64,000 bases of DNA, from the NCBI GenBank assembly GCA_934503195.1, contig CAKSVM010000002.1, positions 850 through 64,849 of the forward strand. Reading direction: 5' to 3'. Source of the stretch: an uncultured Eubacteriales bacterium (lineage in GTDB: Bacteria > Bacillota > Clostridia > Oscillospirales > CAG-272). Both the position numbers and the translations under genes were made by a program. The notes beneath the pieces are model-generated. The model worked only from the letters and a program-made list of their open reading frames with translations. It made no database searches and was not told where the DNA came from. Every line of letters begins with the position of its first letter. Position 1 is the stretch's first letter. This document shows positions 5,482-50,253 of the stretch, piece by piece.

Positions 5482-6861
5482 TTATCTGCCTCCTACCGTG
5501 ATCTCTCTGACCCTGATGAGCGGCTGGCCGACGTCGGTCGGGATAGATCCGCTTGACGATCCGCACATTCCCTGCGCGCGGGCGAGATTCTGTCCGACCA
5601 TGTCGATGTCCATCAGTATCTCGGAGCCTTTGCCGATCAGCGACGCGCCGCGGACTGCCTCGCAGATCTTTCCGTTACGGACGATATAGCCCTCGCTGAC
5701 CGCGAAGTTGAAGGAGCCGTCGATCGGATTGACCGAGCCGCCGCCCATCTTCTTAGCGTAAAGTCCGTATTCGATCGAGGCGATGATGTCCTCGTTCTTA
5801 TCGGTTCCGTTTTCGATGAAGGTGTTGGTCATGCGCGAGGTGGGGTCGTACTCAAAGCTCTGTCTGCGGCTCGAACCGTTAGCTTCCATGCCCATTCTGC
5901 GGCCGTTGAGCTTGTCGATCATATAGCACTTCAGAACGCCCTTTTCAATGAGAACCTTGCGGTTTGACGGAGTTCCCTCGTCGTCGATGTTCATTGAGCC
6001 CCACGCGTTCGGAATCGTGCCGTCGTCGATCGCGGTGACCTTTTCGGAGGCGATCTTCTGACCGAGCTTTCCGGCCATCTGGGAGGTGTTCTTGGCGACC
6101 GACGTGGCTTCGAGCGAGTGTCCGCAGGCCTCGTGGAAGATTACTCCTCCGAAGCCGTTTTCAATCGCTACGGTCATTTTTCCGGCCGGGCAGTAGGACG
6201 CGCCGAGGTTCACCATCGCCTGTCTCGCGGCCTCGCGGCCGACGTCGGCGGGGTTGATTTTTTCGAACATTTCAAGTCCCATGCGGCTTCCGGGCGACTC
6301 TCCGCCCGACTGATTCTCGCCGTCCCTGCTCGCTACCGCGCCGATCGCGAGTCTGGTTCTTATCTGGCGGTCGCCGGTGAGAAGTCCGTCGCTGTTGGCG
6401 ATAAGGATCGAGTGATCGACGTCGAGGAGCGTTCCGCGCACCTGAGAGATCTCGGGCGCGTATTCCTTCGCGGCGAAGTAGCCGGATTTGAGGATATCGA
6501 TCTTGGTTGCCTTCTTCGCGGTGTCGGGGACGATCTTTACGGGGTGGATGTTCGGGAAGATACGCTCGGTCAGGTGGATCTGGATCTCAGCCTTGCCGTC
6601 GGCAAGGACGTCGGCGACCTGTCCGGCGCAGCGGAGCAGACCCTCGCGGGTGAGATCCGTGGTCGACGCGCTGACCATGCGGAGTCCCGAAAACGCGCGG
6701 ATGCCGACTCCGGCGACCGTGGTGTCCGAGATTTCCTCGACTCTGCTGTCGATCATGCTTATCGCGTTGTATCGCGAATTCTCGGCGAAGACCTCGGCAA
6801 AGTCCGCGCCGGTTGACATGGCGCGCCCGAGGACCTCTTCGAGAAGCTGTTTTGCTATCAT
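5482..6861 (-). CDS. tldD: TldD metalloprotease
   Basis: 459 aa. Contains the HEACGHSLE (HExxxH) motif and the GSCG-type C-terminal region (GMCGSSSGSIP) characteristic of TldD. Confidence 0.9.
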   Translation of the reverse strand: MIAKQLLEEVLGRAMSTGADFAEVFAENSRYNAISMIDSRVEEISDTTVAGVGIRAFSGLRMVSASTTDLTREGLLRCAGQVADVLADGKAEIQIHLTERIFPNIHPVKIVPDTAKKATKIDILKSGYFAAKEYAPEISQVRGTLLDVDHSILIANSDGLLTGDRQIRTRLAIGAVASRDGENQSGGESPGSRMGLEMFEKINPADVGREAARQAMVNLGASYCPAGKMTVAIENGFGGVIFHEACGHSLEATSVAKNTSQMAGKLGQKIASEKVTAIDDGTIPNAWGSMNIDDEGTPSNRKVLIEKGVLKCYMIDKLNGRRMGMEANGSSRRQSFEYDPTSRMTNTFIENGTDKNEDIIASIEYGLYAKKMGGGSVNPIDGSFNFAVSEGYIVRNGKICEAVRGASLIGKGSEILMDIDMVGQNLARAQGMCGSSSGSIPTDVGQPLIRVREITVGGR

Positions 6862-6923
6862 TTTCCTTGTTCTCCTTTCAGGATGATAACTCTATTGTAC
6901 CATATTTCACAGGAAAAAGGAAG

Positions 6924-6951
6924 ACCCGGACGCGAAAATTTACGTCCGGGT
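6924..6951 (-). terminator. Terminator downstream of melA
   Basis: 9-bp stem ACCCGGACG/CGTCCGGGT. On the minus strand it is followed by CTTCCTTTTTCC. Confidence 0.6.
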
Positions 6952-6979: not shown

Positions 6980-8308
6980 TCAGTCGCCATACTCGGGAAG
7001 CCAATCGCCGTGAGCCGCGATAAGCTCGTCGCAGAGCTTCACTATGTCGTCTATCGAAAGCTCGGCCGCGGTGTGGGGTTCGAGCATCGCCGCCTGATAG
7101 ATCTTCGAACGCGATTTTGTGACCGCCGCCTCGATTGTCAGAAGCTGCGGGTTTATGTCCGCCGAGTTCATCGCGGCGAGGACTGTCGGAAGCTTTCCGA
7201 TCTTCGTCGGGTGGATGCCCATTCCGTCGACAAGGCAGGGAACCTCGACGCAGGCGTCAGGTGAGAGATTCGTTATAAGACCGTCGTTTATGACGTTTCC
7301 GCCGATTTCATAGGGCTTTCCGGTGACTACCGCCTCCATGATGTAGGACGCGTATTCGAGGCTGCGGTTGTGGGTCAGCTTCGACGGGTCGTCAAGAAGC
7401 TCGGAACGCTGCTTTTTCCAGTTCTCGATCTGATTTACGCAGCGTCTGGGATATTCGTCGAGCGGGATGTTGTATTTTTCGATCAGCTCGGGATACTTCG
7501 ACTTGATGTAGAAGGGATTGTACTCGGCGTTATGCTCGCTCGACTCGGTGCAGTAATAGCCGAAGCGGTTTATGTAATCGAACCTGACCATGTCGCAGTG
7601 CTTTTCGGTGCGGTTCTTTTCGATGGCGCGGCGTTTCGCCTCGGGATAGATATCGTTGCCCTCAAGGTCATGAAGTTCGAGAAGCCAGCCCATGTGGTTG
7701 ATTCCGGCGATCAGCGCGGAATTCTTTCCGACGTACTCGTCCATTCCGACCCGTCTCAAAAGCGTGTCGGCGCAGGTCTGGACGCTGTGGCAGAGTCCGA
7801 TTGTCTTCACTTTGGTGAATCTCTGCATATATCCGGTGAGCATCGCCATAGGGTTGGTGTAGTTGAGGAAGAGGGCGTCCGGACAGACCTCCTCGATGTC
7901 GCGCGCGATTTTCTCAAGCACGGGAATGGTTCTGAGCGCGCGGAAGATTCCGCCGATTCCGAGTGTGTCGCCGATAGTCTGCCGCAGACCGAACTTTTTC
8001 GGAATTTCGAAATCGGTCACGGTGCAGGGCTCGTAGCCGCCGACCTGAATCGCGTTGATGACGAACCGCGCGCCCTCAAGCGCCGCCCTGCGCTCGCTTA
8101 TTCCGAGGTACTTCTTTATTGTCGCCGCGCCGTTATTGATATTTTTATTGAGGGCGGTGAGCATCAGATACGAGTCCTCAAGCCGCTCGGAGTCGATATC
8201 ATAGAGCGCGATCTCGGCCTCGTGAAGCGACGGGGTGAGCATGGTGTCGCCGATGACGTTTTTTACAAACACGGTGCTTCCCGCGCCGATGAAGGTGATT
8301 TTAAGCAT
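6980..8308 (-). CDS. melA: GH4 NAD-dependent alpha-galactosidase (MelA-like)
   Basis: 442 aa. N-terminal Rossmann motif KITFIGAGSTVFVKN. GGYEPCTVTDFEIPKKFGLRQTIGDTLG, GLCHSVQ and C-terminal AAHGDWLP closely recall E. coli MelA from memory. Confidence 0.9.
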   Translation of the reverse strand: MLKITFIGAGSTVFVKNVIGDTMLTPSLHEAEIALYDIDSERLEDSYLMLTALNKNINNGAATIKKYLGISERRAALEGARFVINAIQVGGYEPCTVTDFEIPKKFGLRQTIGDTLGIGGIFRALRTIPVLEKIARDIEEVCPDALFLNYTNPMAMLTGYMQRFTKVKTIGLCHSVQTCADTLLRRVGMDEYVGKNSALIAGINHMGWLLELHDLEGNDIYPEAKRRAIEKNRTEKHCDMVRFDYINRFGYYCTESSEHNAEYNPFYIKSKYPELIEKYNIPLDEYPRRCVNQIENWKKQRSELLDDPSKLTHNRSLEYASYIMEAVVTGKPYEIGGNVINDGLITNLSPDACVEVPCLVDGMGIHPTKIGKLPTVLAAMNSADINPQLLTIEAAVTKSRSKIYQAAMLEPHTAAELSIDDIVKLCDELIAAHGDWLPEYGD

Positions 8309-39785: not shown

Positions 39786-41258
39786 ATGAAAAAGGCATTA
39801 TCTCTCACCCTCGCGCTCGCTCTTCTCATGACGACGGCCGCGTCCTGCGGACAGTCGGGGAACGGCGGAAATGAAACGACCACCTCGGGCGGATCGACGA
39901 CCACAAACGGCACGACCGAACCCGAGACCACAAAGTCGCTTGTCGATCAGCTCGGCGACATCGACGAGAAGTACAAGGGACGCACCTTCACCTTCCTCGA
40001 CGCGAACGGTTCGCCGTCGATTCACGTCAATATCCCCGGCGACTCGGAGACCGGCGAGGTCATAAACGACGCGCTTTACGAGCGTGACACTTATATGGAG
40101 GATCGCTACGGAATCAAGATCGACTACGTTTCGGTTCCCAAGGCATCCGACGGATGCAATCAGCTCAAGAACTCGGTGCTGGCGGGCGACAACGACTATG
40201 ACTTCGTCATGTCCTGCCTGATGGGCGGCGCGCTCGGAACGATCGCGACCGAGGGAGTTCTCGCGAACCTCATCGATGTTCCGCACCTCTCGCTGACCGA
40301 TACGTGGTGGAGCCACTATATGTACGAAAATCTCCAGATTGACGGCAAGATGTACTATACGACCGGAGATATCACGCCGTCGCTCTATCAGATGCCGGCC
40401 TGCGTCTACGTCAACCGCGACCTCGTTGAAAAGTACGGAATCGACGTCGACTTCTACAAGGAAGTTACCGACGGCACATGGACGATGGACGTCCTCGGCG
40501 AGGCTACGAAGGGTCTTGATCAGGATCTCAACAACGACGGCGTTATGAGCGACGATGACGATTTCTTCGGCTTCGCGCCGCAGATGAACACGCTTATGAC
40601 CGAGTCTCTGCTTGTCGGCGCGGGCGTTCCGTTCTGCACGGTCGACAACACCAAAGACACGGTGACGATCGGATTTGACGATGAGTACACCGCGAACGTA
40701 ATGGAAAAGATCGCCTCGATCCTCCCGAAGGATATCACCTTCACGCCCTACGCGGTCAACACCGGAAAGGTCTTCAGCGAGGACCGCGCGGTTGTCACGA
40801 TGCACTTCGTCGAGAAGGCGATCAACACCTTCAGAAGCATGAAGAGCGATTATTATATTCTTCCGGTGCCGAAGTACTCGGCCGATCAGGACGGCTACCG
40901 TTCGTTCGTGAACGCGTGGATCCACGCCTTTGTGGCAATCCCGTCGAACGCGGATCTTGATTTCGCGGGCTTTGTGACCGAGGCTATGGCGAGATATTCC
41001 TACGAAAACATCCGTCCGAAGGCGTATGACATCACCTATAAGGCAAAGGCGGCGCGCGACGAGGAGTCGGCCGAGATGCTCGACATCATCTTCGACAACG
41101 TTTACCTTGACTTTGAGGCGGTATACGATTTCGGCAACATGATGAACTCGCTCCACTCGGTAGCTGTCGGAGACGCCGGACTGGCGTCGACCGTAGCGTC
41201 GAAGAAGGACTCTGCAAACACCGCGGCGGCAACGTTCGTCAAGTCGTGGCTAGGCTAA
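39786..41258 (+). CDS. ABC-transporter extracellular solute-binding lipoprotein (paralog)
   Basis: MKKALSLTLALALLMTTAASCG lipobox, T/G-rich linker, 490 aa. Shares blocks with the 32656 SBP (e.g. DYDFVM, WW.., LNNDG). Confidence 0.85.
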   Translation: MKKALSLTLALALLMTTAASCGQSGNGGNETTTSGGSTTTNGTTEPETTKSLVDQLGDIDEKYKGRTFTFLDANGSPSIHVNIPGDSETGEVINDALYERDTYMEDRYGIKIDYVSVPKASDGCNQLKNSVLAGDNDYDFVMSCLMGGALGTIATEGVLANLIDVPHLSLTDTWWSHYMYENLQIDGKMYYTTGDITPSLYQMPACVYVNRDLVEKYGIDVDFYKEVTDGTWTMDVLGEATKGLDQDLNNDGVMSDDDDFFGFAPQMNTLMTESLLVGAGVPFCTVDNTKDTVTIGFDDEYTANVMEKIASILPKDITFTPYAVNTGKVFSEDRAVVTMHFVEKAINTFRSMKSDYYILPVPKYSADQDGYRSFVNAWIHAFVAIPSNADLDFAGFVTEAMARYSYENIRPKAYDITYKAKAARDEESAEMLDIIFDNVYLDFEAVYDFGNMMNSLHSVAVGDAGLASTVASKKDSANTAAATFVKSWLG

Positions 41259-41530
41259 GCGGGGAGCCCCCGCTGGCGGACGTCAGGGTTAGTCTGTGCG
41301 GAATCGGTTATCGCGGTTCTGTCAGGAGGGATTCAGGAGTCACCGCTACGCGGTTACTCCTTCACCCGTTCGGGCTTATCGCCCTCACCTAAAGGCGGGG
41401 AGCCCCCGCTGGCAGACGTCAGGGTTAGTCTGTACGGAATCGGTTATCGCGGTTCTGTCAGGAGGGGGTCGGAGTTACCGCTGCGCGGTCACTCCTTCAC
41501 CCCGCTCAGGCTACGCCTTCGCCTGCCGTG
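41259..41530 (+). repeat. Tandem pair (units C 41259-41394, D 41395-41530) of the structured repeat of about 130 nt
   Basis: Starts 1 nt after the SBP stop codon. Same architecture as 24111-24386: 5' hairpin GCGGGG-agc-CCCCGC and central hairpins at 41336-41360 and 41471-41495. Confidence 0.85.
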
Positions 41531-41592
41531 ATACTGCCGGGCGTTAGTTTTCGGCATGACGTCGCGAAAGAAACAGAGACAAATATTTTTGG

Positions 41593-41634
41593 AAAATCCC
41601 GGGGGCGGCTCCGGGATTTTTCACGCACTTTTTT
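41593..41634 (+). terminator. Rho-independent terminator downstream of the SBP gene and the repeat pair
   Basis: AAAATCCCGG-gggcggct-CCGGGATTTT followed by TCACGCACTTTTTT. Confidence 0.75.
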
Positions 41635-41668
41635 GTCTTGATAAGTCAAAATTCGTCGTAATTCCGGA

Positions 41669-41697
41669 TTGACAAGGGGCGCGTTTGGTAGTATAAT
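41669..41697 (+). promoter_or_regulatory. Consensus promoter of the MATE gene
   Basis: TTGACA (41669-41674), 17-nt spacer, TATAAT (41692-41697). Confidence 0.7.
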
Positions 41698-41795
41698 ATT
41701 CTCCGTAATTTTCATTCCGTGGGGGCGATATTATCTTTACCGCGAAAAAAAGAAAATCCTCAGTCGACCTTGTCTCGGGCGGCGAGGGAAAGGTT

Positions 41796-43199
41796 TTGTT
41801 AAAATTCTCCGCGCCGATTATATTCTCGTATCTCCTTCAGCAGATCTATACGATCAGCGACGCCGCGATCTGCGGGCAGACCCTCAGCGCGGATGAGGTC
41901 GCCGGGGTCAATGACGTATTTCCGCTGATGTTCATCTTCCTTCAGTTCGCGTTCGGCTGTACGGCCGGGTTCTCGGTAATAACGTCGCTGAAGCTCGGCG
42001 AGGGCGACCGGGAAGGCGTCCGCAAATCCTTCGCCGCTCAGCTTGTCTTAGGCGGCGTTGTGACGCTGATTCTGACCGCTCTCGCGATCCTGACTCTCGA
42101 TCCTCTGCTCCGCTTCATCGGGCTTTCCGAGGCGAATTTCGGCGTCTGGAGGGCGGCGTACGACTACTCGCTCGTGATCTTCATCGGAATCTTCGCTCAG
42201 CTTTACTATAATCTCATCTGCTCGGTGCTGCGGAGTCTGGGCGACTCGGTGACGCCGCTTGTCTTCCTCTTCATCTCGACCGCGCTGAATATCGGACTCG
42301 ATCTTCTCTTCATTATGACCTTCGGGTGGGGAGTGATCGGCGCGGCGTCGGCGACCGTGCTGGCGCAGGCTCTGAGCGCGGCGGCCTGCCTTGTATATAC
42401 CTTCGCGAAATATCCCGAGCTGAGGCTTTCGCGCGGGGATTTCGGCTTCGATCTTCCGCTTCATCTGCGGCATTTGCGGCAGGGGATACCGCTCGGCTTG
42501 CAGTTTTCGGTGCTGGCGGTCGGAATCATCGTGATGCAGTCCGCGCTTGTGAGCTTCGACCTCGGGGCGGACGGAATCATGGCGGCGGGGAATCCGGCTC
42601 AGAACGGCTTCGGCGCGGCGAACAAGCTGAACAACTTTCTGATGTGTCCGATGAGCGCGCTCGGGGCGGCGATTGTCAGCTTCAACGCGCAGAATCTCGG
42701 CGCGGGGCGTCAGGATCGGATCCGGCGCGGGACGATAAAGAGTCTTCTCATCGGACTCTGTATGTACGTTGTCCTCGGCGGAATCGGGCTTCTGCTGACC
42801 ACTGGCGGCGCGTATCAGTATATCTTCATGAGCGCGGACAAGATCAGCGTCGAGTCGATAAGGTTCGGGAACATTTATCTTTACGTGGATCTTGCGATGT
42901 ACTTCATGCTGGCGGCACTTTTCGTGCTGAGGTCAGGCGTGCAGGGAGTCGGGCATTCGGAGTTCACGCTTCTCGCGGGATGCGCGGAGCTTACGGCGCG
43001 GATTCTGATATGCAGTCTGCTTCCGGCGGCGGTGAACGGCGGCGCGATCGATTCCTCGGCGTCGACTCTGGCGTATGCCGCGCTCTGCTTCGGCGATCCC
43101 GGCGCGTGGACTCTGGCGGTTCTGTCGCTTCTCTGGCCGACCGGGAAGTATCTGCTTTGCGGGAAAAGGGCGGAGAAGGCCGGAACGGGGGAAAAGTGA
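41796..43199 (+). CDS. MATE family efflux transporter
   Basis: 12-TM profile. N-terminal LLKFSAPIIFSYLLQQIYTISDAAICGQ is the MATE signature. The start is uncertain: a TTG at 41796 with GAGGG 7 nt upstream, while homology-like sequence (VDLVSGGEGKV) continues upstream without a canonical start. Confidence 0.85.
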   Translation: MLKFSAPIIFSYLLQQIYTISDAAICGQTLSADEVAGVNDVFPLMFIFLQFAFGCTAGFSVITSLKLGEGDREGVRKSFAAQLVLGGVVTLILTALAILTLDPLLRFIGLSEANFGVWRAAYDYSLVIFIGIFAQLYYNLICSVLRSLGDSVTPLVFLFISTALNIGLDLLFIMTFGWGVIGAASATVLAQALSAAACLVYTFAKYPELRLSRGDFGFDLPLHLRHLRQGIPLGLQFSVLAVGIIVMQSALVSFDLGADGIMAAGNPAQNGFGAANKLNNFLMCPMSALGAAIVSFNAQNLGAGRQDRIRRGTIKSLLIGLCMYVVLGGIGLLLTTGGAYQYIFMSADKISVESIRFGNIYLYVDLAMYFMLAALFVLRSGVQGVGHSEFTLLAGCAELTARILICSLLPAAVNGGAIDSSASTLAYAALCFGDPGAWTLAVLSLLWPTGKYLLCGKRAEKAGTGEK

Positions 43200-43211
43200 A
43201 CAAACGGAAAG

Positions 43212-43234
43212 GCTCGGCTCTGCCGGGCTTTTTT
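43212..43234 (+). terminator. Terminator of the MATE gene
   Basis: GCTCGGC-tct-GCCGGGC (one G-T pair) followed by TTTTTTG. Confidence 0.7.
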
Positions 43235-43245
43235 GTATGGGACAC

Positions 43246-43280
43246 GAAAAAACAGGACCTTTCGGTTTGAAAAGTCCTGT
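43246..43280 (-). terminator. Terminator downstream of the prophage integrase
   Basis: ACAGGAC/GTCCTGT stem. On the minus strand it is followed by TTTTTTCGTG. Confidence 0.6.
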
Positions 43281-43361
43281 AAAATGGTCGGAGTGAGGTG
43301 ATTCGATGAAATGCCGATAATTCCTGACAAATTCGGGATTTCTACACGATTTTTACACGAT

Positions 43362-44498
43362 TTATTCGGAAAAAGCCGGAATCCGATCTAAAACCCTGAC
43401 CGCGCGTTCCTCTTCGCGAGGGTAAAGATGCGCGTAGGTCTGCCATGTCGTTTCGACGTTTGAGTGACCGAGACGGCGCGCGACTTCCTGAATGTTTATC
43501 CCCTCGTTCGCGAGAAGCGAGGCGTGCGTGTGGCGAAAATCGTGTATTCGGATATGCGGCAGTCCGGCGGCTTTGGAGTAAGTGGTATTCCGGAGTTCGA
43601 TTGAGGCGTCGCGAAGCGCACGAACCCCACCGCATACCCGGAAGTCCTCGGTGAAACGCGAATCTGCCGCCTGAAGCTTTCTCTGCTCGGAGAGGACAGT
43701 CATCAGCGGCGCGGGAATCTGAAGATCGCGGTAGGACGAGCGGTTCTTCGGAGAAGTTTCGACATCCTCGCCTCGGAGCTTCTGAGTCAGACTCCGGCGG
43801 ATGTGCAGGACATTGCCGTCGATGTCCGACCATTTCAGCGCGTTTATCTCGCCCTTGCGTGCGCCCGTGTAGACCGCAAGCGCGAAGAAGGTGTAATAAC
43901 CGTAGTCGGCGATGTCGCCGGACTGTGCGGCGTCATGCGCGGCTGTGAGGTACTTTCCGACCTGCTCGGCGGTGTAGAAGTGCAGACGCTCCCGCGGGAG
44001 ATCAAATTCGGAGTTCCGGAAGTTGCCGAGAGTCTTAAGCGGGTTTTTCACGATGTAGCCCATCCGTTCGGCGAAGCTCAGCATGGCGGAGAACTGCGTG
44101 AAGTAGTTCTGACAGGTCTTGCAGGAATATCCGCGGGCGGCGATCGAGTTCTTCCATTTCTGCGCCTGCGGGAGATCGAAGTCAGCGAGCTTCACGCCGC
44201 CGACCTCGGGCAGAATGACGTTCTCGAACATCTGGCGTTTCTTGTCGAGAGTCGTCCCGCGGAACTCGGAGCGGACAGAGTCAATATACTCATCGTAGAG
44301 CGACGAGAGGGTCAGCTTCTTTTCGACCGGAGACTTTTTCAGCTCCTCGGAGAGCCTGCGTTCGAGGTCCTTCGCCTCGGTCGCGCCGTAAGCGACGCGC
44401 GTCAGCTGGCGCGGCTTGCCGGACTGGTCGACGTAGTTGATCCGGACGCGGTACTGCTGTTTGCCGTCCTTTTTCTGGTCGGTTTTGTAGATCGGCAT
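43362..44498 (-). CDS. Tyrosine-type site-specific integrase
   Basis: MPIYKTDQKK... SAM-like N-terminal domain. The C-terminal catalytic region has ARKGE, HDFRHTHASLL, LGHSNVETTWQTYAHLY (R..HxxR..Y). The ATG at 44498 with an AAGGAG RBS is preferred to the TTG at 44519. Confidence 0.92.
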   Translation of the reverse strand: MPIYKTDQKKDGKQQYRVRINYVDQSGKPRQLTRVAYGATEAKDLERRLSEELKKSPVEKKLTLSSLYDEYIDSVRSEFRGTTLDKKRQMFENVILPEVGGVKLADFDLPQAQKWKNSIAARGYSCKTCQNYFTQFSAMLSFAERMGYIVKNPLKTLGNFRNSEFDLPRERLHFYTAEQVGKYLTAAHDAAQSGDIADYGYYTFFALAVYTGARKGEINALKWSDIDGNVLHIRRSLTQKLRGEDVETSPKNRSSYRDLQIPAPLMTVLSEQRKLQAADSRFTEDFRVCGGVRALRDASIELRNTTYSKAAGLPHIRIHDFRHTHASLLANEGINIQEVARRLGHSNVETTWQTYAHLYPREEERAVRVLDRIPAFSE

Positions 44499-44613
44499 TT
44501 TGTGGAACTCCTTTCGCAAAGTAAAAGTCCGTGAATTCTGCTTATCCCGGATAATGGGCGCGTACTCTCACGGACTGGCTGATATTTTTCGCGGACGTCT
44601 CCGCTATGGGTAT

Positions 44614-44642
44614 ATTATACACCTTTTGCGTGAGGTTGTCAA
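44614..44642 (-). promoter_or_regulatory. Consensus promoter reading into int
   Basis: The minus strand reads TTGACA (complement of 44637-44642), a 17-nt spacer, then TATAAT (complement of 44614-44619). Confidence 0.65.
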
Positions 44643-44686
44643 GATGGGGGGGAGCATTTTCGTGAGGTCACGAAGATGGTCACTCG

Positions 44687-46252
44687 TCACCTTCGGTATT
44701 TTTTATCCCATTCCTGTTGCTTCGAACGAATATACAGCCAATACAGAATATTGCCTATTCCACAGGTTAGAAAGAAGAGTATGATATGTACCGCGTATTC
44801 GTTTTTCGGACGGGAAGGAATAGTCTCGCTCGGATAATAAACATAGTCATTCTCATCATCCCCCTCATCGGCGTCAGGCGGGACTTCCAGAATGTTTGCT
44901 CTGCTGTACACCTCACCGATCAGACTGCTGTTGTCTGATAAAGAAGCGGTTATCAGCAAGCCCGCATCATGTAATGATAAAACACGACCCTGAGCGGGCA
45001 TTGTTGCCATTACATTATCAAAAAGCTCCAGATATTTTTCAATGCTCATGTTTTCCGCGAGCAGATAAACTTTCAATTTGTCGATGGGAGCTTGATTTAT
45101 CAAGAGCCGATCATCAATGTCGAATTGCGTAGACACTACGTTGATCGAGTAATACAAGACCTCGCTTATTGCCCATATTGCGCAATCATACCGATTGTTT
45201 GCCCCGAAGAAGTCAGCCATACGTTGTTTGATATCCATGTGGATGAAATCATCGTGGTTCTCGTCACAAAGCGATAGACGACGGTTGAGTTCATTGAATA
45301 TTACTTCATCGGAAGACGCACCCGGATTCTGTGACATTAACTTCGACATGGTACACATAGAAATTCCGTATTGCGGCTTTGGATGGAATTTTCTTACCCA
45401 TGCGTTTGAGCTGATCTCGCTATCGCCCATTTCAGTCAGTTCGCCATTTTTTATGAATCCTCTGTTTTCGAGCGATTTGAGCAGAGCGGGAACGTCAGAC
45501 ACGCCATATGTACTTTGCCAGAATTTCGCGATTGGTTTTCCGGAATAATATTTTTTTGCGTATGTCAGCAAAAGTATCTCATGTGGATATAGTCCTGACG
45601 TACTCTTGCCGCATAGCTCCGTTTTGTAATAAAAATCCGTTGACGGACAGTATTGGCTGTACGTAGAAGGCGCGGTACGAGTGTTTGATGAGACGCCGGA
45701 GTTGCTTGAAGCGATGTCATTGCCATCGTCGGATTCAGCGATCTGCCGTAACTGATTTATGTAATCGAGATTGGTTTTATAAAGAGATTCGTAGTAATCT
45801 TCGACTGAATCGCAGAAATCCAATACTTTTTGCTTTCTTGTGGATTCCTGCTTATAGCTCTCAACAATATGTTTAATACCACGTGTTATAAAATTGTTGA
45901 TCGAGGTCTCTTGCTTTTCGTAGATCAATTTTACGGCTTTTGCTGGTGGAGTGCCACGGAATGAGACGTAGTGAGAGATGCTTTCGAGTTTGAGAAAATT
46001 CAAAAGCATAAGATTATATCGTTTGAAATAAACGTCAGGCGTACAGGTTGAATTGACTAGGTTCTTGCTTTCGTCACCGATTTTCAACCACTGCGGTGCC
46101 ATGAATTCGGCATACTCGCGGCGACCTTTGACTGAACGCTTTGATTCCATCATAGCGGTTTCTTTAATGTTTGCGCGATGTACATTAAATAAAGTCGAAT
46201 CGCAAGGGATATTGGTAGGTGCAGGCTCTTGAACTGATAGATAGTCTTTCAT
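44687..46252 (-). CDS. Orphan 521-aa protein with a single C-terminal TM helix, low-GC (prophage moron, function unknown)
   Basis: GAGGTGA RBS. GC of sampled 60-nt lines is about 35-43%, versus about 57% in flanking phage genes. C-terminal TM YAVHIILFFLTCGIGNILYWLYI followed by a basic tail. No motif I recognise. Confidence 0.8.
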   Translation of the reverse strand: MKDYLSVQEPAPTNIPCDSTLFNVHRANIKETAMMESKRSVKGRREYAEFMAPQWLKIGDESKNLVNSTCTPDVYFKRYNLMLLNFLKLESISHYVSFRGTPPAKAVKLIYEKQETSINNFITRGIKHIVESYKQESTRKQKVLDFCDSVEDYYESLYKTNLDYINQLRQIAESDDGNDIASSNSGVSSNTRTAPSTYSQYCPSTDFYYKTELCGKSTSGLYPHEILLLTYAKKYYSGKPIAKFWQSTYGVSDVPALLKSLENRGFIKNGELTEMGDSEISSNAWVRKFHPKPQYGISMCTMSKLMSQNPGASSDEVIFNELNRRLSLCDENHDDFIHMDIKQRMADFFGANNRYDCAIWAISEVLYYSINVVSTQFDIDDRLLINQAPIDKLKVYLLAENMSIEKYLELFDNVMATMPAQGRVLSLHDAGLLITASLSDNSSLIGEVYSRANILEVPPDADEGDDENDYVYYPSETIPSRPKNEYAVHIILFFLTCGIGNILYWLYIRSKQQEWDKKYRR

Positions 46253-46317
46253 AAAATAATATCACCTCAATTTTTCTTACTTTCAACCCACACTGTCATC
46301 ATAGACAGTGACATAAT

Positions 46318-46752
46318 TTATAGTCCTTCAACCCTGAGCCGCGCGATCTTCTCGTCAACCCCGAACATCTTGCCGAGCTGTTCATACGTGAAGTGTCTGT
46401 ACTCGTCAAGGTCATCATCGCTGATAAGCAGACAGGACGCGAAGTAAGTCGCTTCCTTTTCATATCGGCTGATCGGATACAAGGTATGATTCCGGAGAAA
46501 ATGCGTGTTGTTGTCCGGATGCAGAATGGCGTGTCCGAGTTCGTGGGCGCACACAAATCTCTGCTCCCCGCGCGTAAGCTGTGAGTTGATATGTATGAAT
46601 TTCTGCCTGTATGCTGTATTATAGAATCCGTTTATCTGATATAGCGGCTCAAAGGTGACGATGATTCCGAGTGAGCGCGCTATACAGCACGGGTCACGGC
46701 TGTATTCGTCAGCGAGCTTCGCGGCGATGCCGGAGATTGCATCAGCCTTCAT
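46318..46752 (-). CDS. ImmA/IrrE family metallopeptidase
   Basis: HELGHAILH (HExxH) within a 144-aa protein. It overlaps the upstream XRE repressor gene by 11 nt, the classic ImmR/ImmA arrangement. Confidence 0.88.
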   Translation of the reverse strand: MKADAISGIAAKLADEYSRDPCCIARSLGIIVTFEPLYQINGFYNTAYRQKFIHINSQLTRGEQRFVCAHELGHAILHPDNNTHFLRNHTLYPISRYEKEATYFASCLLISDDDLDEYRHFTYEQLGKMFGVDEKIARLRVEGL

Positions 46753-47215
46753 TATTTGAATCCTTCCGGTATTTTTTCGGTGTGTATTTTTGCTTCGCGA
46801 TCAGCTTGCCCATTCTTATTGAGTTTTCGATAGACTTGATCAGCGCGTCGCGCGTCTCGTCGTCAAGTTCAAGCGGCTCGCCGTCGAACATTAACGCTTC
46901 TCCGGTCGAACCGAGGTCTTCGAGGACGGCGTTCAGTCGCTTTGAAATGTCGATCTCGTCCCGCTCTGTGATCGTCGGGGCAAAATCTCCTTCGCTCTGC
47001 GAGGGGGATTTTTTTGCTTTCGGCGTGTCTGTGCGTTCGAGAAGATAGTCGACCGTTACATTGAAATACTTGGCGATCGCCGAAAGTGTTTCGGTATCCG
47101 GGTCACGTCTCCCGCATTCATACGCGCTGAGTGTATTCTGCGCTATGTTCAGAATCTTGCCGAGTTCTGTCTGAGACAGCCCATGTTGCTTTCTTAATTC
47201 TTTAATCCTTTCCAT
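46742..47215 (-). CDS. XRE-family phage repressor (CI/ImmR-like)
   Basis: N-terminal HTH: LRKQHGLSQTELGKILNIAQNTLSAYECGRRDP. 157 aa. Divergent from the cro-like gene. Confidence 0.88.
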   Translation of the reverse strand: MERIKELRKQHGLSQTELGKILNIAQNTLSAYECGRRDPDTETLSAIAKYFNVTVDYLLERTDTPKAKKSPSQSEGDFAPTITERDEIDISKRLNAVLEDLGSTGEALMFDGEPLELDDETRDALIKSIENSIRMGKLIAKQKYTPKKYRKDSNNEG

Positions 47216-47228
47216 GACACAACTCCCT

Positions 47229-47257
47229 TTCTGTAATCATAATATCACAAATTGGGC
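47229..47257 (-). promoter_or_regulatory. Repressor (lysogenic) promoter
   Basis: The minus strand reads TTGACT, a 17-nt spacer ending TGA, then TATTAT. Confidence 0.65.
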
Positions 47258-47307
47258 TAAAAGTCAAGGGGACGAAAAAAATATTTTGAAAATATCTCAA
47301 AAAGGGC

Positions 47308-47336
47308 TTGACAAATAGCACGTAATGTGCTATAAT
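47308..47336 (+). promoter_or_regulatory. Early lytic promoter with an embedded palindromic operator
   Basis: TTGACA (47308-47313), 17-nt spacer, TATAAT (47331-47336). The spacer contains the palindrome TAGCAC-gtaat-GTGCTA. Confidence 0.7.
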
Positions 47337-47391
47337 CTTAATCAAGCAAGAGAAAATCTTGAAAATATCCGAAAAGGAGATAAAAAGCAAA

Positions 47392-47604
47392 ATGCGTAAC
47401 TGGCTTACAGCACTTCGCAAAGCTCGCGGAATGACGCAGGCGAAACTTGCCAAAGCCGCCGGGATTTCGCAGAACTACCTCAGCGCGATTGAAGTCGGGC
47501 AACGGAATGTTCCGGTTTCAACAGCGAAGCGGATCGCGTCCGCGCTCGGCTTCGAGTGGCAGAGATTTTATGAAGACGAAAACGAAAAGGAGACAGCAAA
47601 ATGA
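47392..47604 (+). CDS. XRE-family Cro-like regulator
   Basis: MRNWLTALRKARGMTQAKLAKAAGISQNYLSAIEVGQRN HTH. AAAGGAG RBS. The ATG at 47392 is preferred over the TTG at 47359. Confidence 0.85.
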   Translation: MRNWLTALRKARGMTQAKLAKAAGISQNYLSAIEVGQRNVPVSTAKRIASALGFEWQRFYEDENEKETAK

Positions 47605-47933
47605 CCGAAACAATCATCCGGGTTTACACCGGAATCATCAAGACAATCAGAAAGCCCGACTGGAAAACCAGACAGACCGGCTACTACGAACTCGCCTACA
47701 AGGAGTTCGACGCGGAGACCGGCGAGCTGATCGGCGAAGGGACAGAGGACTTCACCGGCGAAAGAATGTGCGAGGAACTCAGGCAGTATGAAATCCTGCT
47801 CCGCGACGACGTGAGGAACGGCATAGACGAGCCTCACAGGTGGATATACGTTAGTAAGAATCAGGTCTACCCCGCAATCGCGGCTCGGTTCGTGTACGGC
47901 GAAGAAGTTTTAAGAGTCAAAAGAATACATTAA
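47601..47933 (+). CDS. Phage hypothetical protein
   Basis: 110-aa ORF with a 4-nt overlap to the cro-like gene and protein-like composition. Confidence 0.6.
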   Translation: MTETIIRVYTGIIKTIRKPDWKTRQTGYYELAYKEFDAETGELIGEGTEDFTGERMCEELRQYEILLRDDVRNGIDEPHRWIYVSKNQVYPAIAARFVYGEEVLRVKRIH

Positions 47934-47948
47934 GAGGAGATAAAGAAA

Positions 47949-48557
47949 ATGACCATCAAAGAATTCACCGAGCGCACGGGTTTCTACCCGACCTACGAGC
48001 ACTACAAGTTCATCGAGAAGTCCTATATGGACTTCGACGGCGACAAGGACGCCTTCTGCAAGGCGTTCCGCGAGAACACCGACGGCATCGCCGAGAAGAT
48101 CACCCGCGAAGTTGAACGCTTCGTTGAAGAGCAGACCGAACTCGGAATGCACGAACACGACGCGATGGAAGAGCGCATCGCGCGGCAGGCTGGCATCATA
48201 AACGATCTTCAGGCGCAGCTCGACGCCGAACTCGAATGGACGCCCTGCAAGGACGCCGGGACGCGGATGACTCAGCGCGACTACGTGAAGCTCAAAGAGG
48301 ACAGGTTCACGAAGACGATGACCGATGAGGAAGCCGCGAACTTCATCGCCGAGGAACTCGGGTTCAACGCCGAGAGGGTGCGGATCATCCGCAAGGCTGA
48401 GACCTACGAGGTCAACAAGCACCGCCGGATGAGAGTCGCCGAGACCTACGAGCGCGAGCCGCTGTACGAGTCGACCGATTGGAACTACGTCAGATTCGAT
48501 GTGTACGGCATGACGTACGAGTACGTCAACGGACAGCTCATGATGTACCAAAGATAA
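47949..48557 (+). CDS. Phage hypothetical protein
   Basis: 202-aa ORF with a GAGGAG RBS; E/D/K-rich helical protein. Confidence 0.65.
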   Translation: MTIKEFTERTGFYPTYEHYKFIEKSYMDFDGDKDAFCKAFRENTDGIAEKITREVERFVEEQTELGMHEHDAMEERIARQAGIINDLQAQLDAELEWTPCKDAGTRMTQRDYVKLKEDRFTKTMTDEEAANFIAEELGFNAERVRIIRKAETYEVNKHRRMRVAETYEREPLYESTDWNYVRFDVYGMTYEYVNGQLMMYQR

Positions 48558-49474: not shown

Positions 49475-49792
49475 ATGATCAACGTCCCGACTATAACGAG
49501 CGTCGAAGCCGCGCTCGACACCTTCTACAAGTTCCCTCAGCTCGGGAATAAGGAAATAAAGCTGATCTTCGGGCAGATCGGCTCGGCGAAGATATGTGAG
49601 CTGAAAGTCCTCGCCCGCGAGAAGATGAAGGAGCAGAATCAGCCGCTCTGGAACAACAAGACAGTAAACACCGACAGCGCGTATCAGGCGTGGGGACTCG
49701 ACGTCGCCGACCTCGAACGCCGATACGCGAGACTCAAACGAATGGAGAAGGCAAATGGAGAAGAACATTCCCGGACTGAAAAAGGCGTATAA
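49475..49792 (+). CDS. Phage hypothetical protein
   Basis: 105-aa ORF in the early operon. Confidence 0.55.
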   Translation: MINVPTITSVEAALDTFYKFPQLGNKEIKLIFGQIGSAKICELKVLAREKMKEQNQPLWNNKTVNTDSAYQAWGLDVADLERRYARLKRMEKANGEEHSRTEKGV

Positions 49793-50012
49793 CGCCCATC
49801 TTTCGCGGCTCCGGGCGAACAGACCGTCGAAGGACGAAGCGACCCGCGACCTCATGTACTGGTCGGCGAAGTACCTCGAAGCGGTTCTGGACGGCGTGAG
49901 CTTCGACCCCGCTTCCGGACTGTACGGAGGGATCCTCGAAGCCTACGCCCGCCGTGAAGCGTTAAAACAGTATCTGGAGGAGGTGAAAGCAGATGCAGAC
50001 CGTACCATATGA
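49755..50012 (+). CDS. Phage hypothetical protein
   Basis: 85-aa ORF overlapping its neighbours, as is typical of phage early genes. Confidence 0.5.
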   Translation: MEKNIPGLKKAYNAHLSRLRANRPSKDEATRDLMYWSAKYLEAVLDGVSFDPASGLYGGILEAYARREALKQYLEEVKADADRTI

Positions 50013-50253
50013 GAAGACGCACGCGATCCAGAGCGACATCATCAAAAAGCAGGAGCGCGAGATCAACGCTCTGCGCGAGTCGAACAGGATCCTCGAAGCG
50101 ACCGCGCAGACGCTCGCGGAAGCCCTTTCGCAGGCTCTGAGCCGCGAAGGACGCGACCGGGTGTTCGTACCCGTCAAGGAGATAAAGCCGTCCGGCGCGT
50201 CGTTCAGAGTCGAGCAGACCATCGACGGCGATGTTCTTCTCATCCGCGCATGA
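49993..50253 (+). CDS. Phage hypothetical protein
   Basis: 86-aa ORF with a predicted coiled-coil-like N-terminus. Confidence 0.5.
   Translation: MQTVPYEKTHAIQSDIIKKQEREINALRESNRILEATAQTLAEALSQALSREGRDRVFVPVKEIKPSGASFRVEQTIDGDVLLIRA

Follow-up and report, generated by a model that had tools for sequence, protein, structure and literature searches.

Gene X and the lysogeny module around it

We analyzed a 64,000-nucleotide (nt) stretch of DNA from an uncultured Eubacteriales bacterium (contig CAKSVM010000002.1, positions 850 to 64,849), referred to below as the window, and focused on gene X, a 521-amino-acid (aa) gene at 44687-46252 on its minus strand. X stands between an integrase gene (int) and the genes of an ImmA-like metalloprotease (immA) and a repressor (rep); the gene order is int, X, immA, rep, with all four genes on the minus strand. 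The features of the locus are as follows.

43362-44519, minus strand: tyrosine integrase gene int, downstream neighbour of X (Pfam Phage_integrase, E = 2.5e-20).
44614-44642, minus strand: perfect promoter-like site TTGACA-17-TATAAT between X and int, outside the common cassette (consensus scan, 12/12).
44673-46462, minus strand: mobile cassette, running from the final 145 nt of immA through the spacer and X to 14 nt beyond its stop (blastn versus prophage L027).
44687-46252, minus strand: X, complete coding sequence including the stop codon, encoding a chimeric cargo protein (list of open reading frames; 96%-identical full-length homologue P0001; ratio of non-synonymous to synonymous substitution rates, dN/dS, of 0.18 versus P0001).
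46261-46268, minus strand: ribosome-binding site GAGGTGAT, read from the sequence, with the ATG of X 8 nt downstream.
46291-46310, minus strand: inverted repeat with 7-bp arms, CACTGTC-TATGAT-GACAGTG, in the spacer that separates immA from X and thus part of the mobile cassette; no T-run.
46318-46752, minus strand: immA, ImmA-like metalloprotease (Peptidase_M78) and upstream neighbour of X (Pfam, E = 7e-24), its 3' end inside the common cassette (cassette comparison).
46742-47215, minus strand: rep, repressor and first gene of the presumed operon (Pfam HTH_3, E = 9e-18).
47239-47267, minus strand: promoter-like site TTGACT-17-TATTAT with extended TG, upstream of rep (consensus scan, 10/12).
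47308-47336, plus strand: second perfect sigma-70 consensus TTGACA-17-TATAAT, upstream of the Cro-like gene (consensus scan, 12/12).
47359-47604, plus strand: divergent Cro-like helix-turn-helix (HTH) gene (Pfam).

The frame of X starts with ATG and stays open for 521 codons in the list of open reading frames (ORFs), a length that is far beyond chance in DNA of 43% guanine plus cytosine (GC). The peptides DDGNDIASSNSGVSSNTRTAPS, LYPHEILLLTYAKK...RGFI and PPDADEGDDENDYVYY, as well as a C-terminal hydrophobic helix with a basic tail, are all present in its translation, and its ribosome-binding site GAGGTGAT was graded strong. An alternative start at M33/M34 was set aside, since only the upstream ATG has a strong ribosome-binding site and the frame from there stays open in P0001. 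The GC content of X is 42.7% (46% at third codon positions, GC3), compared with 58.1% for int (GC3 75%), 50.8% for immA, 56-60% for two neighbouring host genes and 56.1% for the whole window. Homologues of X elsewhere also lie 2-11 points under their own loci. The ORF list, the sequence and the Pfam assignments of the neighbours thus bear out what an initial annotation, made from the letters alone, had described: a 521-aa frame with the quoted peptides and its own strong ribosome-binding site, low in GC and placed between int and the immunity genes on the lysogenic strand.

X is a fusion of two unrelated families and a hydrophobic helix

A word-indexed search of 5.8 billion clusters returned four relatives of X, P0001-P0004, and 4-5 even with a profile. 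P0001 is a full-length protein 96% identical to X; P0002 and P0003 (320-326 aa, ~50% identical) correspond to X residues ~197-521 only, and P0004 is a distant SAP-domain protein. An exhaustive phmmer search of 1.84 billion representatives, by comparison, found 461 homologues of the X domains at E ≤ 1e-3, which split into two unrelated sets, family A (residues ~43-175) and family B (~216-375, up to ~450). The label 'orphan' in the initial annotation is therefore wrong for the domains, and it is the full-length architecture that is rare, with P0001 as its other example. We conclude that X is a fusion of a family A N-domain, a family B core and a conserved C-terminal hydrophobic helix, arranged as follows.

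46127-46252, minus strand: residues 1-42, poorly constrained N-terminal extension, absent in family A relatives, which start near 'AEFMAPQWLK'.
45728-46126, minus strand: residues 43-175, helical N-domain of family A, PHROG 7974, function unknown (phrog_7974 match, stand-alone homologues, tblastn).
45608-45727, minus strand: residues 176-215, S/N-rich low-confidence linker at the joint of the two modules (predicted local distance difference test, pLDDT, <50 at 176-196; P0002/P0003 begin at ~197).
45383-45607, minus strand: residues 216-290, winged helix-turn-helix-like module with GLYPHEIL...FW...L..LE.RGFI followed by a hairpin (AlphaFold model, conserved columns, BFVD match).
44888-45382, minus strand: residues 291-455, alpha-helical TPR-like solenoid half of the family B core (nine helices in the AlphaFold model; weak TPR matches).
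44801-44887, minus strand: residues 456-484, acidic unconserved linker with net charge -7 (9-12% identity to P0002/P0003; pLDDT <50 at 469-484).
44690-44800, minus strand: residues 485-521, hydrophobic helix VHIILFFLTCGIGNILYWLYI and basic tail RSKQQEWDKKYRR, a putative membrane anchor (hydropathy, conservation).

X and P0001 are the only A+B fusions that we saw. P0023 and P0042 were considered as further cases and rejected, their C-terminal halves being a different Cys-rich domain (FGCHRLQ...NNPWW). A comparison of the two families by hhalign was likewise discarded, as it gave only a trivial self-match from the window sequence, which is in both alignments.

The cassette moves between prophages under purifying selection

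Comparison of the window with the ENA contig L027 by blastn gave a single 1791-nt match at 95.9% nucleotide identity, with the flanking DNA unaligned. The genes of L027 stand in the order cro, rep, immA, X (P0001), int. Its repressor is 54% identical to that of the window, its ImmA is 67% identical with the C-terminal ~48 aa nearly identical, and no similarity was detected between the two integrases. This match amid differing flanks indicates that X has been exchanged between different prophage backbones. The separate acquisition that the initial annotation had read from the GC content is thus substantiated by a cassette that moves between unrelated backbones.

X and P0001 differ by 35 synonymous and 25 non-synonymous changes, corresponding to a dN/dS of 0.18. 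Six of the 24 amino-acid differences fall in residues 1-32, which indicates that the N-terminal extension is weakly constrained. X is thus a real gene under purifying selection that moves as a cassette between prophages, and it is very probably a mobile cargo of the lysogeny module.

These data also bear on whether the frame of X is decaying or without function, as an artefact of the fusion of two degraded morons. The poorly constrained first 32 residues (6/24 substitutions) would suit such a reading, and a relative in contig L008 looks fragmented, though that contig has masked N runs. Against it, the 521-codon frame is intact in two independent samples, has a dN/dS of 0.18 and is preceded by a strong ribosome-binding site; each domain, moreover, either folds confidently in the model or matches a family profile. 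We regard decay as extremely improbable.

Predicted structure of the family B core

Homology within family B covers residues 216-375 and continues to ~450, with phmmer E values from 1e-89 to 1e-8. Its near-invariant segment, GLYPxEIL...FW...L..L..RGF, belongs to a set of near-invariant columns comprising G220, L221, P223, E225, L227, L229, Y231, F244, W245, Y249, L261, G265, T273 and G276. In 74 of the 102 rows of our family B alignment (A2; the window protein and 101 relatives), a SAP/HeH insert directly follows RGFI. X and its nearest relatives are without this insert: X has merely 'KNGE' between RGFI and LTEMG, and Pfam gave no SAP match at E ≤ 1.

An AlphaFold model built from the single sequence was unusable (mean pLDDT 39). 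With the 102-sequence alignment, residues 210-455 were modelled at pLDDT >90. The model shows a winged helix (helices 223-236, 244-249 and 254-263, with a beta-hairpin at 267-272) at pLDDT >95, followed by a solenoid of nine helices (299-454) with block-mean pLDDT of at least 88 up to ~450. A winged-helix-like module in the middle segment had been guessed from the letters, and the model agrees with that guess.

Fold comparisons of such a model had been proposed in the initial annotation. A Foldseek search of BFVD matched gut-virome proteins labelled as MarR-family or SAP, the best (E = 4e-12) carrying the MarR-family label. Against the PDB, Foldseek gave non-significant TPR-like matches only (best E = 0.05, root-mean-square deviation >11 Å). 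A phmmer search of PDB sequences with X found nothing, and the matches of the family B profile there were limited to the SAP insert and, at E = 0.006, a designed TPR. No model in Pfam, NCBIfam, PADLOC or PHROG covers the family B core, and tblastn searches of cultured and deposited phages, with X or the L029 protein as query, did not find family B.

The absence of a recognisable catalytic motif, another early observation, was confirmed, in that the X core has no conserved residue pattern suggestive of catalysis. The core would accordingly serve as a binding module, not an enzyme.

The N-domain belongs to PHROG 7974

Residues 48-169 of X match positions 78-202 of the 213-position phrog_7974 profile (E = 4.3e-12, 47 bits). 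Most family A members are stand-alone proteins of 140-200 aa that share the invariant motif N-x-T-x-x-P-x-x-x-F-x-R-Y. In relatives, the N-domain is fused to DUF4236, TM2, SHOCT, zinc ribbons, a DEDDh exonuclease, TPR repeats or an unannotated Cys-rich domain. The family A profile gave nothing meaningful among PDB sequences. The N-domain was modelled at low-to-moderate confidence only, because alignment A2 contains no family A sequences.

Searches of cultured and deposited phages by tblastn matched the N-domain to Acutalibacter phage Fontainebleau and to the Clostridioides difficile phiCD38-2 group. The phiCD38-2 gp15 protein (L005, 4758-5399) joins DUF4236 to a family A domain, and its gene belongs not to the lysogeny module but to the tail module, with the tail-chaperone-region genes on one side and the tape-measure gene on the other; the family A domain is therefore used in differing genomic contexts. 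The same protein was found by tblastn in phiCD111, phiCD146, CDSH1, slur17 and AR1075-1, the gene context having been inspected for phiCD38-2 only.

The unannotated Cys-rich domain, ~170 aa long by eye, is fused to the family A N-domain in P0020, P0023, P0042, P0067 and P0141. It carries the motifs ...SFGK[ST][ST]S.N[YF]...NG.L[IV]D.K.IG.I[KN]YCYGDKCRS...FGCHRLQ[IM]S..NNPWW and had no Pfam match in the two of five proteins scanned (P0023 and P0042). P0042 continues beyond this domain with a zinc ribbon and a membrane helix, and its gene is flanked by a CI/S24 repressor and int.

A conserved C-terminal helix and membrane proximity

X contains a single hydrophobic segment, at about residues 486-511; its N-terminus (MKDYLSVQEPAPTN...) is hydrophilic, with no signal-like segment. 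The Kyte-Doolittle mean over a 19-residue window reaches 1.96 for the window starting at residue 490, as measured on the near-identical P0001. Residues 478-521 are the best-conserved segment, with 68-70% identity between X and P0002/P0003 compared with 48-51% overall, and the acidic linker ahead of the helix is 9-12% identical. This conservation of helix and tail suggests that the helix is more than a passive anchor. It has a polar GxGN centre.

X is probably tail-anchored and would face the cytoplasm, since its 484-residue N-terminal region, without a signal peptide, is not plausibly exported and its domains are of nucleic-acid- or protein-binding types. Relatives show related tendencies. A hydrophobic segment of their own, at the N- or C-terminus, is present in about one fifth of the family B members, and family B genes are often fused to or precede genes for small membrane proteins, such as a zinc-ribbon-transmembrane (TM) protein in P0006 and L011 and DUF4282 in L013, among others. 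The N-terminal motif MG[LF]FD[FI][FL]KK opens 49 of the 101 family B sequences in alignment A2 and 18 of the 49 family A sequences in alignment A1, and is a possible shared localisation or membrane-binding signal. Membrane proximity may thus be a family trait. The same motif also opens unrelated 136-138-aa proteins in the repressor-integrase slot (L110-L120).

The conserved helix with its polar GxGN centre, together with the small membrane proteins that often follow or are fused to family B genes, could alternatively point to a role in addiction or toxicity, such as that of a membrane-active toxin which is restrained by its own cytoplasmic domains or by a prophage partner and stabilises the prophage. 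Such a toxin appears very improbable to us, as X is a single gene without a cognate small partner, the short forms P0002 and P0003 retain the helix without the N-domain, and neither Pfam nor PADLOC showed similarity to known toxin-antitoxin families.

Sequence signals for expression from the lysogen

X lies on the same strand as rep, a promoter-like site precedes rep, and no terminator-like site precedes X; these signals are consistent with expression in the lysogen together with the repressor. The site at 47239-47267 is the likely source of a rep-immA-X transcript. The scan reported no terminator-like site between immA and X, where the inverted repeat at 46291-46310 fails for want of a T-run; this repeat could be an operator or an RNA-processing or stability element. 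On the simplest reading of these sequence features, rep, immA and X would be co-transcribed in the lysogen and int would be served by its own promoter. X, at the 3' end of the rep-immA transcription unit, would therefore probably be made in the lysogen.

The perfect promoter-like site at 44614-44642 on the minus strand lies ~95 nt upstream of int. A full-consensus promoter preceding an integrase gene is unusual, and its presence suggests that int is controlled through repression, not through promoter weakness. The strongest terminator-like site of the region, a hairpin with a 14-bp stem and a T-run at 46982-47012 on the plus strand, is antisense within the repressor ORF, at the linker between the HTH and the C-terminal part.

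Both modules recur in a hypervariable slot

Each of the two modules alone recurs at the repressor/ImmA-integrase junction of many Clostridia phages, with differing repressor and integrase types. For family B, the order is rep-ImmA-B-int in L002, rep-ImmA-B-bPH-int in L007 and rep-B-lipoprotein-int in L006, and in L020, B is followed by three small genes and int. Among the 39 IMG/VR contigs with family B loci, 33 carry rep, B and int in order on one strand, the remainder being cut by contig ends. For family A, phage Fontainebleau has the order regulator-A-integrase, L025 and L026 have rep-ImmA-A, and L022 has a CI-type HTH+S24 repressor, an A fusion protein and int. In L070, A is followed by a 502-aa serine recombinase. 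The family A gene starts within a few nt of the repressor stop in 10 of 13 IMG/VR contigs.

In L008, from an uncultured Blautia metagenome-assembled genome (MAG), a short form of the cargo without the N-domain follows immA (ImmA-B). Its early genes are akin to those at 49475-50253 of the window (MINIPPITSVE..., MEKNIPGLKKAY..., ...KQEREINELRES...), and its cargo gene is followed by a 523-aa membrane protein where an integrase would stand. The backbones of L008 and the window are thus related and carry different variants of the cargo.

The dispensability of family B was assessed by searching IMG/VR with the repressor of a large family B phage group, which gave 58 contigs with a related repressor, many of the repressors being at least 90% identical. 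Family B follows the repressor in 19 of the 58, and 34 instead have 1.2-2.7 kilobases (kb) of different cargo before int, including membrane proteins, MGFFDFLK-type proteins and DUF4236-like proteins. Since near-identical repressors are followed by differing cargo, the slot is hypervariable and family B is accessory, not a core lysogeny function.

These arrangements also bear on a regulatory role, in which X would be an accessory regulator of the lysis-lysogeny switch whose core would sense a signal, be it a peptide or the condition of the membrane or envelope, and in turn modulate repressor, ImmA or integrase/excision, by analogy with HTH-TPR receptors like AimR and Rap. In many phages both modules follow closely behind rep or immA: only 4-14 nt separate the genes in L025, L002 and L007, and in L066-L074 the starts overlap or adjoin. 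The combination of a winged helix with a helical repeat resembles the architecture of regulators; Rap proteins are among the weak Foldseek matches; and many phages with family B after the repressor show no detectable ImmA. The same modules, on the other hand, accompany three kinds of repressor (XRE+ImmA, XRE-only and CI/S24) and integrases of the tyrosine as well as the serine type. Two prophages with unrelated integrases and repressors of just 54% identity have the cassette of X in common, family B is missing from phages with repressors at least 90% identical, and SAP-type relatives exist at non-prophage loci. The 167-nt gap between X and int holds no pro-peptide ORF of at least 50 aa (shorter ORFs were not searched for), and the profile search of PDB sequences returned no RRNPP chain at E ≤ 10. 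RRNPP membership on the basis of the Foldseek Rap matches (E ~0.5) was not accepted, as they are non-significant. We consider a regulatory role unlikely.

Links to anti-phage functions and weighing of the readings

In lactococcal and streptococcal phages, the stretch from int to the repressor is known to carry exclusion genes (PMC7693887, PMC3952083), and mycobacteriophage Sbash has a lysogenically expressed defence with a membrane component (PMC6426596). Genes in this slot are often, not always, exclusion factors (PMC7693887).

Two cases among relatives place the modules beside defence-type genes. In L012, a Syntrophomonadaceae MAG, a SAP-type family B gene (5809-6945) is followed by a gene for a 184-aa Pfam SieB membrane protein (7111-7665, E = 1.5e-17). 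The gene next after the family A fusion P0023 encodes a DUF3644/EC042_2821 protein with a match to PADLOC candidate PDC-S19 (E = 9e-142); this arrangement occurs in two independent contigs (L023, 5001-7193; L024, 420-2612), with a TIR-fragment gene nearby in L023, and the two genes may form a two-gene unit. In L010, a Tissierellia MAG, a near-identical family B locus is followed by an integron-cassette-like protein, an HNH protein and a pair of XRE and M78/CapP-like proteins. The neighbours in L012 and L010 differ, and the neighbourhood is therefore a variable island. The survey of homologue context suggested by the initial annotation thus brought out a recurrent prophage repressor-integrase slot, with defence-type neighbours confined to the two distant-relative cases.

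Taken together, we propose that X is a lysogen-expressed, probably tail-anchored chimeric moron acting in inter-phage conflict, a statement to which, as a whole, we assign a probability of about 0.4. Its anti-phage component is itself tentative, at somewhat less than even odds; it draws on the prophage position, the promiscuity of the domains and the two guilt-by-association cases with SieB-like and PDC-S19 neighbours.

Several observations weigh against this proposal. The PADLOC comparison advised at the outset brought no defence match, with no family found for X in PADLOC-DB v2 at E ≤ 10. Among Pfam, NCBIfam and the function-annotated PHROGs, X matched no defence or exclusion family; NCBIfam gave nothing and Pfam only a sub-threshold DUF4234. 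The guilt-by-association cases are just two and concern distant relatives of X, not X. The three genes that lie between int and the repressor in lactococcal phage Dub35A conferred no resistance upon expression (PMC7693887), so that position in the slot is no proof. The 39 IMG/VR family B loci are not independent: 36 fall into one cluster at ≥90% identity, and at 60% identity there are two lineages. Independent support therefore amounts to about six family B lineages in the slot from all sources, not dozens; the one large lineage pairs with five integrase and five repressor clusters at 60% identity. The recognition helix of the winged helix is poor in basic residues, which makes DNA binding doubtful. 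As for the membrane, an acidic stretch precedes the helix and a +4 tail follows it, so that the positive-inside rule disfavours a simple N-in tail anchor, and the AlphaFold model breaks the helix at G498. The topology is therefore uncertain, and a monotopic hairpin is possible. The C-terminal TM helix described in the initial annotation is itself supported.

The same accessory nature could also reflect a host-directed lysogenic-conversion factor, in which X, tethered to the membrane, would act as a scaffold and change the physiology of the gut bacterium with respect to its envelope, transport, stress or colonisation. X is lysogen-side accessory cargo that moves between prophages and is under purifying selection; a membrane helix is present, and MG[LF]FD..KK opens about half of the family B relatives. 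SAP-type relatives also occur in ordinary chromosomal settings beside polysaccharide or metabolic genes (L010-L013), and the defence libraries gave no match. None of its domains, however, ties X to metabolism, adhesion or the envelope; domains shuffled to such an extreme, in a slot this hypervariable, more typically mark conflict genes; and relatives have SieB-like and PDC-S19 neighbours. A host-directed role is, in our view, improbable.

If X does act in inter-phage conflict, the following course may be envisaged. X would be made in the lysogen from the 3' end of the repressor-immA transcription unit and kept on the cytoplasmic side of the membrane by its C-terminal hydrophobic helix. The helical N-domain and the winged-helix/TPR-like solenoid would then be exposed near the entry site of phage DNA and ejected proteins. 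These tethered modules might recognise a component of a superinfecting phage at the membrane, such as its DNA or an early or ejected protein. Recognition could either block entry or early development (exclusion) or trigger a Rex/SieB-like abortive response at the level of the membrane via the conserved GxGN-containing helix.

A wider extension of this scheme, which we consider speculative and rather doubtful, is that the two families and their fusion partners or neighbours (small membrane, zinc-ribbon, DUF4236, TM2 and bPH modules) could form an unrecognised modular toolkit of lysogeny-junction immunity proteins in gut Clostridia prophages. Interchangeable recognition modules in the cytoplasm would be plugged onto membrane or effector modules. 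As a member with two sensors and a membrane anchor, X would exclude or abort superinfecting phages, and its mechanism would be unrelated to those of catalogued defence systems.

Prophages of strictly anaerobic gut Clostridia are abundant, and their lysogen-expressed cargo is almost wholly unannotated. The repressor-integrase junction emerges here as a hypervariable slot filled from a linked pool of uncharacterised modules, two of which, PHROG 7974 and the winged-helix/solenoid core, are now defined with synteny, mobility and selection signatures. Should they prove to be exclusion or abortive factors, they would add new families to defence catalogues, help to explain gut phage-host specificity and provide a compact single-gene system. 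If they are not anti-phage, they still mark a conserved, unexplained component of the lysogeny module.

Beyond the prophage genes, a stretch of ~500 nt at 41296-41800, between a solute-binding-protein gene and a MATE-type transporter gene, has a lowered GC content of ~52% and contains only short, improbable ORFs. Rfam showed no family at threshold in this stretch and nothing in 41000-48000.

Comparison with known systems

Cargo of the lysogeny module is well known as a kind, and the domain families, their fusion and the C-terminal anchoring seen here were not found described in the literature. A search for literature on DUF4236, and on the SAP domain with prophage or abortive infection, found nothing relevant.

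At the level of single modules, the N-domain (residues 43-175) matches the PHROG 7974 profile, and its Fontainebleau homologue WAK78922 is encoded between regulator and integrase genes; WAK78922 and phiCD38-2 gp15, unlike X, are stand-alone (~144 aa) or DUF4236-fused proteins. Bacterial and phage proteins that go only by the label 'SAP domain-containing' have a core homologous to that of X, with the same fold in BFVD gut-virome proteins, but most are soluble and start with MG[LF]FD..KK, whereas X has an added N-domain and a C-terminal membrane helix. The motif LTCGIGNILYWLYI of that helix aligns to positions 3-27 of DUF4234 (PF14018), although the score of 13.3 bits lies under the 25.3-bit cut-off and these positions cover only the first third of the 70-position profile.

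Among regulators, the RRNPP proteins (AimR, Rap, PlcR) likewise join a DNA-binding-type fold to a helical-repeat domain and occur in phage lysogeny regions. X differs in having a winged helix instead of an XRE-type HTH, ~150 aa of repeats and no adjacent peptide gene found.

In functional terms, X comes closest to the exclusion and abortive-infection cargo of prophages, although it does not qualify as a member of any of these families. Among exclusion proteins, lactococcal Sie2009 and Streptococcus thermophilus Ltp are encoded in the same slot and on the same strand (int-X-immA-rep, minus, in the window), and X shares with them a single membrane helix. Sie2009, however, is small with an N-terminal hydrophobic anchor, and Ltp, a lipoprotein, is secreted and targets the tape-measure protein from outside, whereas X has 521 aa, neither signal peptide nor lipobox, a C-terminal anchor and a predicted cytoplasm-facing position. 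No homology of X to Sie or Ltp appeared in Pfam, PHROGs or PADLOC, libraries that were not checked for the presence of Sie2009/Ltp models.

Lambda RexAB, the P22/lambda SieB protein and mycobacteriophage Sbash gp30/gp31, which act by abortive infection, offer a further parallel. X has no homology to RexA, RexB, SieB or gp30/gp31 in Pfam or PADLOC, and RexB, SieB and gp31 are multi-pass proteins, whereas X has one C-terminal hydrophobic helix. The likeness is one of organisation: these prophage genes are expressed with or near the repressor and couple a cytoplasmic sensor to a membrane component (PMC6426596), and X unites, within a single chain, modules of putative sensing function and a membrane helix that is conserved.

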